A stretch of DNA of 64,000 nucleotides, from the NCBI RefSeq assembly GCF_054482595.1, contig NZ_CM137008.1, one strand, 5' to 3'. This document shows, in pieces, positions 11,808 through 12,060 of the stretch; within the stretch, counting starts at the first letter, position 1, and every line of letters begins with the position of its first letter. A model generated the notes under the pieces. It saw nothing but the letters and a program-made list of their open reading frames with translations. It did no database searches and was not told the origin of the DNA. The position numbers and the translations under genes were made by a program.

Positions 11808-11957
11808 GTTCGTGTCTCCTGAAAAAAATCGTTCTGAATAAGTGTAAACGCGCGATTGTACCATTACCAATAGCGCTTTTACTATGTTGTGACCTCGGTT
11901 CCGGGAAACAAACCTGGCCAGACATTGTTACACAACACTCCGGGTAATGCATTCCAA

Positions 11958-11977
11958 TACTGTATATTCATTCAGGT
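11958..11977. promoter_or_regulatory. LexA (SOS) box shared by the divergent ssb/uvrA promoters
   Basis: TACTGTATATTCATTCAGGT matches CTGT-N8-ACAG-type SOS box. Confidence 0.85.
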
Positions 11978-12060
11978 CAATTTGTGTCATAATTAACCGT
12001 TTGTGATCGCCGGTAGCACCATGCCACCGGGCAAAAAAGCGTTTAATCCGGGAAAGGTGA

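Follow-up and report, generated by a model that had tools for sequence, protein, structure and literature searches.

The stretch of DNA analysed here, a window of 64,000 nucleotides, carries two SOS units, the divergent ssb and uvrA genes and, some 17 kb away, lexA followed by dinF, and it raises the question of where dinF begins and what lies between it and lexA. Two in-frame ATG codons are candidates for the start of dinF, and the choice between them decides whether the sequence that follows the lexA stop codon is to be read as protein or as RNA structure. Knowledge of the SOS boxes of uvrA/ssb and of lexA, and of the lexA–dinF operon, dates back to the early 1980s. The explanation that we put forward, with considerable confidence, is that three LexA boxes govern the two units, that dinF is reached by read-through from the lexA promoter and translated from the downstream ATG, that the apparent N-terminal extension of DinF is a hairpin mistaken for coding sequence, and that dinF output is limited. 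The boxes, the operon and the dinF start at +54 are all already known and there is little new biology in them; the role of the conserved hairpin in the spacer is the one item of mild residual interest.

Judged by its sequence, the locus is the canonical SOS region of E. coli, comprising the ssb/uvrA pair and lexA–dinF. The lexA–dinF stretch finds matches in 5425 of 5426 complete E. coli genomes, the top matches being 100% identical. The genes run in the opposite direction to those of K-12, in the order pdeC, yjcB, ssb, uvrA, yjbR, yjbQ, aphA, tyrB, alr, dnaB, qorA, pspG, dusA, zur, yjbJ, dinF, lexA, dgkA and plsB. Compared with K-12 MG1655, the 253-nt ssb–uvrA and the 109-nt dgkA–lexA intergenic regions are both 100% identical, and the 2054 nt from the lexA boxes to the dinF stop codon differ by 33 substitutions and no indels. 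On the minus strand, positions 24664–25686 hold a single 340-aa ORF that PGAP annotates as a DUF2713 family protein; K-12 has yjbL (84 aa) and yjbM (235 aa) at this place, and the two may be a disrupted version of the 340-aa ORF. The features that bear on the two SOS units are collected in Table 1.

Table 1 Features of the ssb/uvrA and lexA–dinF units, in window coordinates.
Feature	Position	Strand	Basis or details
ssb CDS	11271..11807	-	PGAP annotation of an identical strain (L001 2472-3008, offset +8799); reads ATGGCCAGC
LexA box common to uvrA and ssb	11958..11977	.	TACTGTATATTCATTCAGGT; 15/20 consensus matches, joint best in the window
uvrA CDS, 940 aa	12061..14883	+	Sequence, ORF, PGAP
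dinF CDS, short form, 441 aa plus stop, MAFLTSSDK	26887..28212	-	PGAP, NF007690, conservation, TetRP
dinF 'long' ORF, 459 aa	28266..26887	-	Mechanical ORF; equals the K-12 b4044 annotation
C-rich, G-poor tract, candidate Rho loading region	28144..28243	-	C:G 2.0-2.3 in 75-nt windows
Terminator-like element in the lexA–dinF spacer	28235..28274	-	13-bp hairpin 28274..28245, tetraloop GCCU, then GTTTTTCATC
lexA CDS, 202 aa	28285..28893	-	Stop codon 28287..28285
lexA box 2	28900..28919	-	AACTGTATATACACCCAGGG; 14/20 matches
lexA box 1	28921..28940	-	TGCTGTATATACTCACAGCA; 15/20 matches

LexA sites were scored by the number of matches to the 20-nt palindromic consensus TACTGTATATATATACAGTA, with 200 dinucleotide shuffles as background. 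No other site in the 64 kb scores as high as the three boxes of Table 1, which have 15, 15 and 14 matches out of 20; in the shuffles, sites with 15 or more matches number 0.07 per window on average, and those with 14 or more 0.8. Because they lead the window and exceed the shuffle expectation, the three sites are, as far as scoring can tell, real and not the product of chance. All of them lie within 5′ intergenic regions near gene starts, and a separate scan of the window for CTG-N10-CAG recovers each, with the invariant CTG and CAG present. An earlier note on this DNA had reported one box for the divergent ssb and uvrA genes and two for lexA, approximately 17 kb apart, and both scans confirm that arrangement. 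The span that it gave for all boxes, 11880–12060, holds the ssb/uvrA box only, the lexA boxes lying at 28900–28940. Its description of the three as intact CTGT-N8-ACAG boxes holds for lexA box 1, whose core at 28938..28923 on the minus strand (CTGTATATACTCACAG) is the sole match to that pattern in the window, but not for the other two: the core of the ssb/uvrA box at 11960–11975 (CTGTATATTCATTCAG) has the form CTGT-N8-TCAG, and that of lexA box 2 at 28917..28902 on the minus strand (CTGTATATACACCCAG) the form CTGT-N8-CCAG, in both cases as in K-12. The strict form is not required of real LexA boxes. A fourth LexA-like site at 45083–45102 (GTCTGAATGAATACCCAGTA), with 13 of 20 matches and CTG-N10-CAG intact, falls within the coding sequence of xylE and probably arose by chance.

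The ssb/uvrA box is centred 93.5 nt from the ATG of uvrA (12061) and 160.5 nt from that of ssb (11807), the same position relative to both genes as the shared SOS box of K-12, from which nothing in the 253 nt differs. The core of lexA box 2 ends 8 nt before the lexA ATG, and the tandem operator likewise shows no difference from K-12 in the DNA of its region. A simple sigma-70 scan of the ssb–uvrA and dgkA–lexA regions returned no strict consensus promoter, and promoter positions were therefore taken from the literature and not from the sequence. According to published work, the ssb/uvrA box has a heterology index (HI) of 6.98 and overlaps the uvrA −35 element, of the three ssb promoters it affects the most distal one alone, and induction of ssb is SOS-dependent yet modest (PMC9505508). 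Salmonella has the same shared box between ssb and uvrA, and two lexA boxes as well (PMC8072944). LexA binding and derepression, also documented in the literature, are to be expected at the boxes of the window, which are identical in sequence to the K-12 sites. The ssb/uvrA pair would then be served by one box of moderate affinity, covering the uvrA promoter and lying ~160 nt ahead of ssb, and the two tandem boxes over the lexA promoter and start region would allow LexA to repress its own gene.

The earlier note had also spoken of an SOS cluster, and three LexA boxes within 17 kb could in principle mark a functional cluster of SOS genes. Two SOS operons do lie only 17 kb apart, but the genes between them (yjbR, yjbQ, aphA, tyrB, alr, dnaB, qorA, pspG, dusA, zur and yjbJ) are unrelated to SOS, and the consensus scan of the window finds no LexA-like site among them. 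By our own estimate, with 40–50 SOS operons in 4.6 Mb, chance alone would place a second SOS operon within 17 kb of around one-quarter of them; the regulon has been put at ~50 genes (PMC9505508). We regard a functional cluster as extremely unlikely and read the word as carrying no extra meaning beyond two SOS operons with unrelated housekeeping genes in between.

Turning to the start of dinF, the ATG at 28266 (28264..28266, minus strand) opens the 459-aa ORF, 18 nt after the lexA stop codon. The second in-frame ATG, at 28212, lies 18 codons downstream, gives a protein beginning MAFLTSSDK and leaves 72 nt between the two genes. The earlier note had identified both codons and the 18-nt gap that follows from the first, and had judged the ribosome-binding site of the first to be weak, which applies to the second too: the calculated anti-SD pairing amounts to −2.7 and −2.5 kcal/mol. 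A long DinF of 459 aa, translated from ATG 28266, is thus no worse placed than the short one in its anti-SD pairing; moreover, no stop codon interrupts the reading frame between the end of lexA and the second ATG in either the window or K-12, and the K-12 reference annotation uses this start. RNA structure points the other way. ATG 28266 occupies positions 9–11 of the 5′ arm of a hairpin with a 13-bp stem. When 191 nt of the mRNA are folded with a partition function, all three bases of this codon are paired with a probability of ~1.0, whereas the A and U of ATG 28212 are unpaired (pairing probability 0.02). Between 28213 and 28235, and in the equivalent positions −23 to −1 of the other junctions described below (77 unique), the only SD-like feature is a semi-conserved GG ~10–12 nt before the dinF start, set in a C/U-rich context (tcAGGct, ctGGat, caGGtt and others) and at an unusually long spacing.

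Annotation resources are divided in the same way. In a strain that is 100% identical to the window over 26800–29100, PGAP calls dinF as 441 aa from ATG 28212, whereas the curated K-12 record gives b4044 as 459 aa, so that lexA–dinF of K-12 differs from that of the window in annotation only. The NCBIfam equivalog profile for the MATE family efflux transporter DinF, NF007690, has 441 positions, of which 1–440 align to residues 19–458 of the long form with a score of 909.7 bits against a cut-off of 409. The window sequence covers nearly the full profile, and residues 1–18 of the long ORF fall outside it, which, together with the PGAP call, argues against the long form.

We then compared the junction between lexA and dinF across species at the level of DNA and not of protein N-termini, because predicted protein starts reflect gene callers. 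A genome scan for DinF yielded 80 species-representative loci, from Escherichia, Citrobacter, Salmonella, Klebsiella, Raoultella, Enterobacter, Kluyvera, Kosakonia, Cedecea, Buttiauxella, Pantoea and Erwinia; 79 of these and the window make up the 80 junctions that were compared, 77 of them unique. A start matching 28212 is found throughout, as ATG in 79 junctions and as GTG in one, 5–7 codons before a conserved D-K-x-L-W motif, and in 65 of the 80 an in-frame stop codon lies between the lexA stop and this conserved start. Apart from the window, only three near-identical Escherichia genomes (L003–L005) have an in-frame ATG 18 codons further upstream. In the remaining 76 junctions the 18-codon extension is absent, interrupted by a stop codon or out of frame, and these include other Escherichia species: a TCA to TAA change within the extension occurs in E. 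whittamii and in one divergent 'E. coli' representative, and E. albertii has a 74-nt spacer, whose 2-nt change in length shifts the upstream ATG into another frame. The 18 N-terminal residues, whose conservation the earlier note had named as potential support for the long form, are therefore not conserved even within Escherichia, and the comparison favours the start at MAFLTSSDK. Within E. coli, an 80-nt junction probe is identical to the window in 2847 of 5425 genomes, and the two one-mismatch variants that were sampled both have their change in the tetraloop of the hairpin, the O157:H7 one corresponding to Pro to Leu in the supposed extension.

A natural insertion separates the two candidate codons physically. 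Strain 43905 (NZ_CM135146.1; L083 2540–3290) carries an IS200C element, with tnpA annotated, in the T-run directly after the hairpin downstream of lexA, at the equivalent of window positions ~28238–28242, between ...GGTTTGTT and TTTTCATCTC. The element moves lexA and dinF ~780 nt apart and leaves the long ATG detached from the gene; the PGAP call for dinF in this strain is still 441 aa. Ribosome profiling, which the earlier note had suggested as a check, also favours the short start. Table S2 of Nakahigashi et al. 2016 lists dinF under '1. new site', with a new initiation site at an ATG shifted by +54; the TetRP values are 0/24.9/10.5 at this ATG and 0/0/0 at the annotated start, and the product begins MAFLTSSDK (PMC4909307). 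The signal at the short start is low and confined to two of the three samples (PMC4909307), as expected for a repressed gene; the accessible part of a Ribo-RET preprint does not mention dinF. With its ATG buried in a stem, its extension lost across the family and outside the profile, its ATG detached in a natural strain and its TetRP signal at zero, the long form is highly improbable.

The same data bear on an intermediate possibility, that two DinF isoforms exist and that synthesis of the long one requires melting of the hairpin, as ribosomes completing lexA might bring about. Ten nucleotides separate the lexA stop codon from the 5′ arm, so that a ribosome at the stop would unwind it and re-initiation at 28266 could follow, and Nakahigashi et al. 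describe many genes with two starts (PMC4909307). Dual starts would, however, leave unexplained why the long start gives no TetRP signal, why the extension lacks selective maintenance even within Escherichia, and why the O157:H7 polymorphism in the hairpin loop would alter a residue of it, and we consider them quite improbable. As dinF is poorly expressed without DNA damage, SOS-induced cells might still make some use of the long start. On balance, dinF very probably starts at ATG 28212 and encodes 441 aa, and ATG 28266 very probably goes unused; it follows from this start that the lexA–dinF spacer measures 72 nt and not 18. The 18-codon 'N-terminal extension' of K-12 would then be the conceptual translation of a GC-rich hairpin and U-run that follow the lexA stop codon. 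For annotation, this means that the 459-aa DinF of the K-12 record adds 18 residues that translate an RNA hairpin.

The short start also changes the grounds on which lexA and dinF are taken as an operon. The earlier note had cited the 18-bp gap in support, an argument that rests on a start codon very probably unused; gaps of this kind commonly serve as operon cues, and this one is an artefact created by the long dinF call. Its conclusion nevertheless stands on other evidence. The two genes are adjacent on the same strand, and in 79 of the 80 species-representative loci lexA ends 60–295 nt upstream of dinF, the sole exception being a locus in which the match begins at residue 39 of dinF, 2 nt from the locus end. 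Neither the spacer nor the sequence immediately upstream of dinF contains a promoter-like site or a LexA-like site (at least 12 of 20 matches). In published work, RNA polymerase occupancy across lexA–dinF rises on SOS induction, Tn5 inserted in lexA exerts polarity on dinF, according to the accessible part of that report, bicyclomycin allows reads to continue from lexA into dinF, and the literature routinely treats lexA–dinF as one operon. We conclude that lexA and dinF probably form an operon, the case for a single transcript coming from the literature, and that dinF, with no box or promoter of its own, would depend on read-through from the lexA promoter.

The sequence between the two genes is dominated by the hairpin. 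Starting 10 nt after the lexA stop codon, it reads AGACCGCGAUGCC-GCCU-GGCGUCGCGGUUU, then GUUUUUCAUC, and with 13 pairs (8 of them G-C), a loop of 4 nt and 6 T among the 8 nt that come after, it has the anatomy of an intrinsic terminator. The hairpin alone has a folding energy of −22.3 kcal/mol. Its 76-nt context reaches a minimum free energy (MFE) of −28.3 kcal/mol (z −3.3), and none of 200 shuffles is as stable. An equivalent hairpin occurs in all 80 junctions, with energies of −13.6 to −23.9 kcal/mol (median −18.4), and usually begins 10–30 nt past the lexA stop codon, with sequences that are unrelated between genera; at least 4 T in the 8 nt after the hairpin are found in only 49 of the 80. 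Measured against dinucleotide shuffles, the spacer MFE has a z below −2 in 67 of the 77 unique junctions, with a median z of −3.3. When 52 spacers were aligned with MAFFT, RNAalifold detected no structure common to them; the hairpins are neither homologous in sequence nor in register. The MFE of each sequence was compared with its shuffles instead, because an alignment fitted to the structure would be circular. A stable hairpin after lexA is thus conserved as structure and not as sequence, a conservation read from per-sequence stability rather than from column-wise covariation.

The anatomy of the hairpin invites a further reading, in which hairpin and U-run are an efficient intrinsic terminator, lexA is effectively monocistronic and dinF has signals of its own. 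Besides the 13-bp stem with its 8 G-C pairs and the 6 T that follow, a read count speaks for it: in the accessible data of Adams et al. 2021, the ratio of downstream to upstream reads is only 0.17 in untreated cells. The same data bring the ratio back to 1.02 with bicyclomycin, at a Rho termination region placed at K-12 4257949 (window 28059; Rho score 6.1, p 5.6e-32). Because bicyclomycin restores the ratio, the drop in reads is Rho-dependent, and because downstream reads equal upstream reads once Rho is inhibited, the hairpin can be at most a weak intrinsic terminator in those conditions. No dominant 3′ end is recorded at the hairpin (K-12 ~4257763–4257772; 42577xx/42578xx) in the accessible Term-seq tables of Adams et al. 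2021, which give dominant ends only and are from uninduced cells. The supplements of TERMITe and SMRT-Cappable-seq have no entries for lexA or dinF, and a full-text literature search found nothing on a lexA terminator. Own signals for dinF are not apparent either, given the empty promoter and LexA scans of the spacer and the sequence directly upstream of dinF, and the literature describes dinF as SOS-inducible and polar with lexA. We therefore judge an efficient terminator to be improbable.

Read-through from the lexA promoter with a limited yield of dinF is consistent with the sequence that follows the hairpin. The C-rich tract of Table 1 covers the 3′ half of the spacer and the first dinF codons, has the highest C:G between the lexA start and dinF +400, where no other stretch is C-rich and G-poor, and lies just upstream of the published Rho region. 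The hairpin, the C-rich unstructured tract and the weak ribosome-binding site would together keep dinF mRNA and protein well below those of lexA. The main step would be Rho-dependent termination early in dinF, as the published bicyclomycin data suggest: with dinF poorly translated, Rho could load on the C-rich tract, and most transcripts would end early in the gene. The hairpin itself may contribute partial intrinsic termination, or may protect the 3′ end of lexA mRNA after trimming.

The layout resembles that of intra-operon attenuation sites, whether terminator-like hairpins or Rho-dependent polarity at poorly translated downstream genes, in its GC-rich stem and U-run right after a stop codon, in the C-rich, G-poor tract and weak ribosome-binding site beyond them, and in the sensitivity of downstream reads to bicyclomycin. 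It differs in that the accessible Term-seq tables of Adams et al. 2021 map no 3′ end to the hairpin. Tentatively, and as something that we would not yet call likely, the hairpin, U-run and C-rich tract might constitute a conserved, tunable attenuator, in which partial intrinsic termination and Rho polarity set the ratio of LexA to DinF throughout the Enterobacterales, perhaps in a condition-dependent manner, and which would have been overlooked as the K-12 annotation reads the element as coding sequence. The spacer element offers a small, testable case of a regulator and a passenger gene held at different levels from one promoter.

Some minor observations concern the transcript and its relatives. 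The accessible tables of Adams et al. 2021 place a dominant RNA 3′ end at window position 28823 (K-12 4257185), 70 nt inside the lexA ORF; it is recorded in LB at OD 0.4 and OD 2.0, its Rho score is non-significant and the sequence there has no obvious hairpin. In Citrobacter and Salmonella (L008–L021, L041 and L065), the spacers are 120–295 nt long and contain one to five REP/BIME-like palindromes (gccggataaggcgtttacgccgccatccggc), which replace or supplement the hairpin, the longest array being that of C. koseri. In the Klebsiella/Raoultella group (L023, L026, L027, L029, L030, L040, L044 and L072), in-frame ATGs occur 12–14 codons upstream of the conserved dinF start, inside the group's own hairpin (cgcagcatcgtctgATGcATGatgctgcg), and could give rise to the same over-extension error in annotation.
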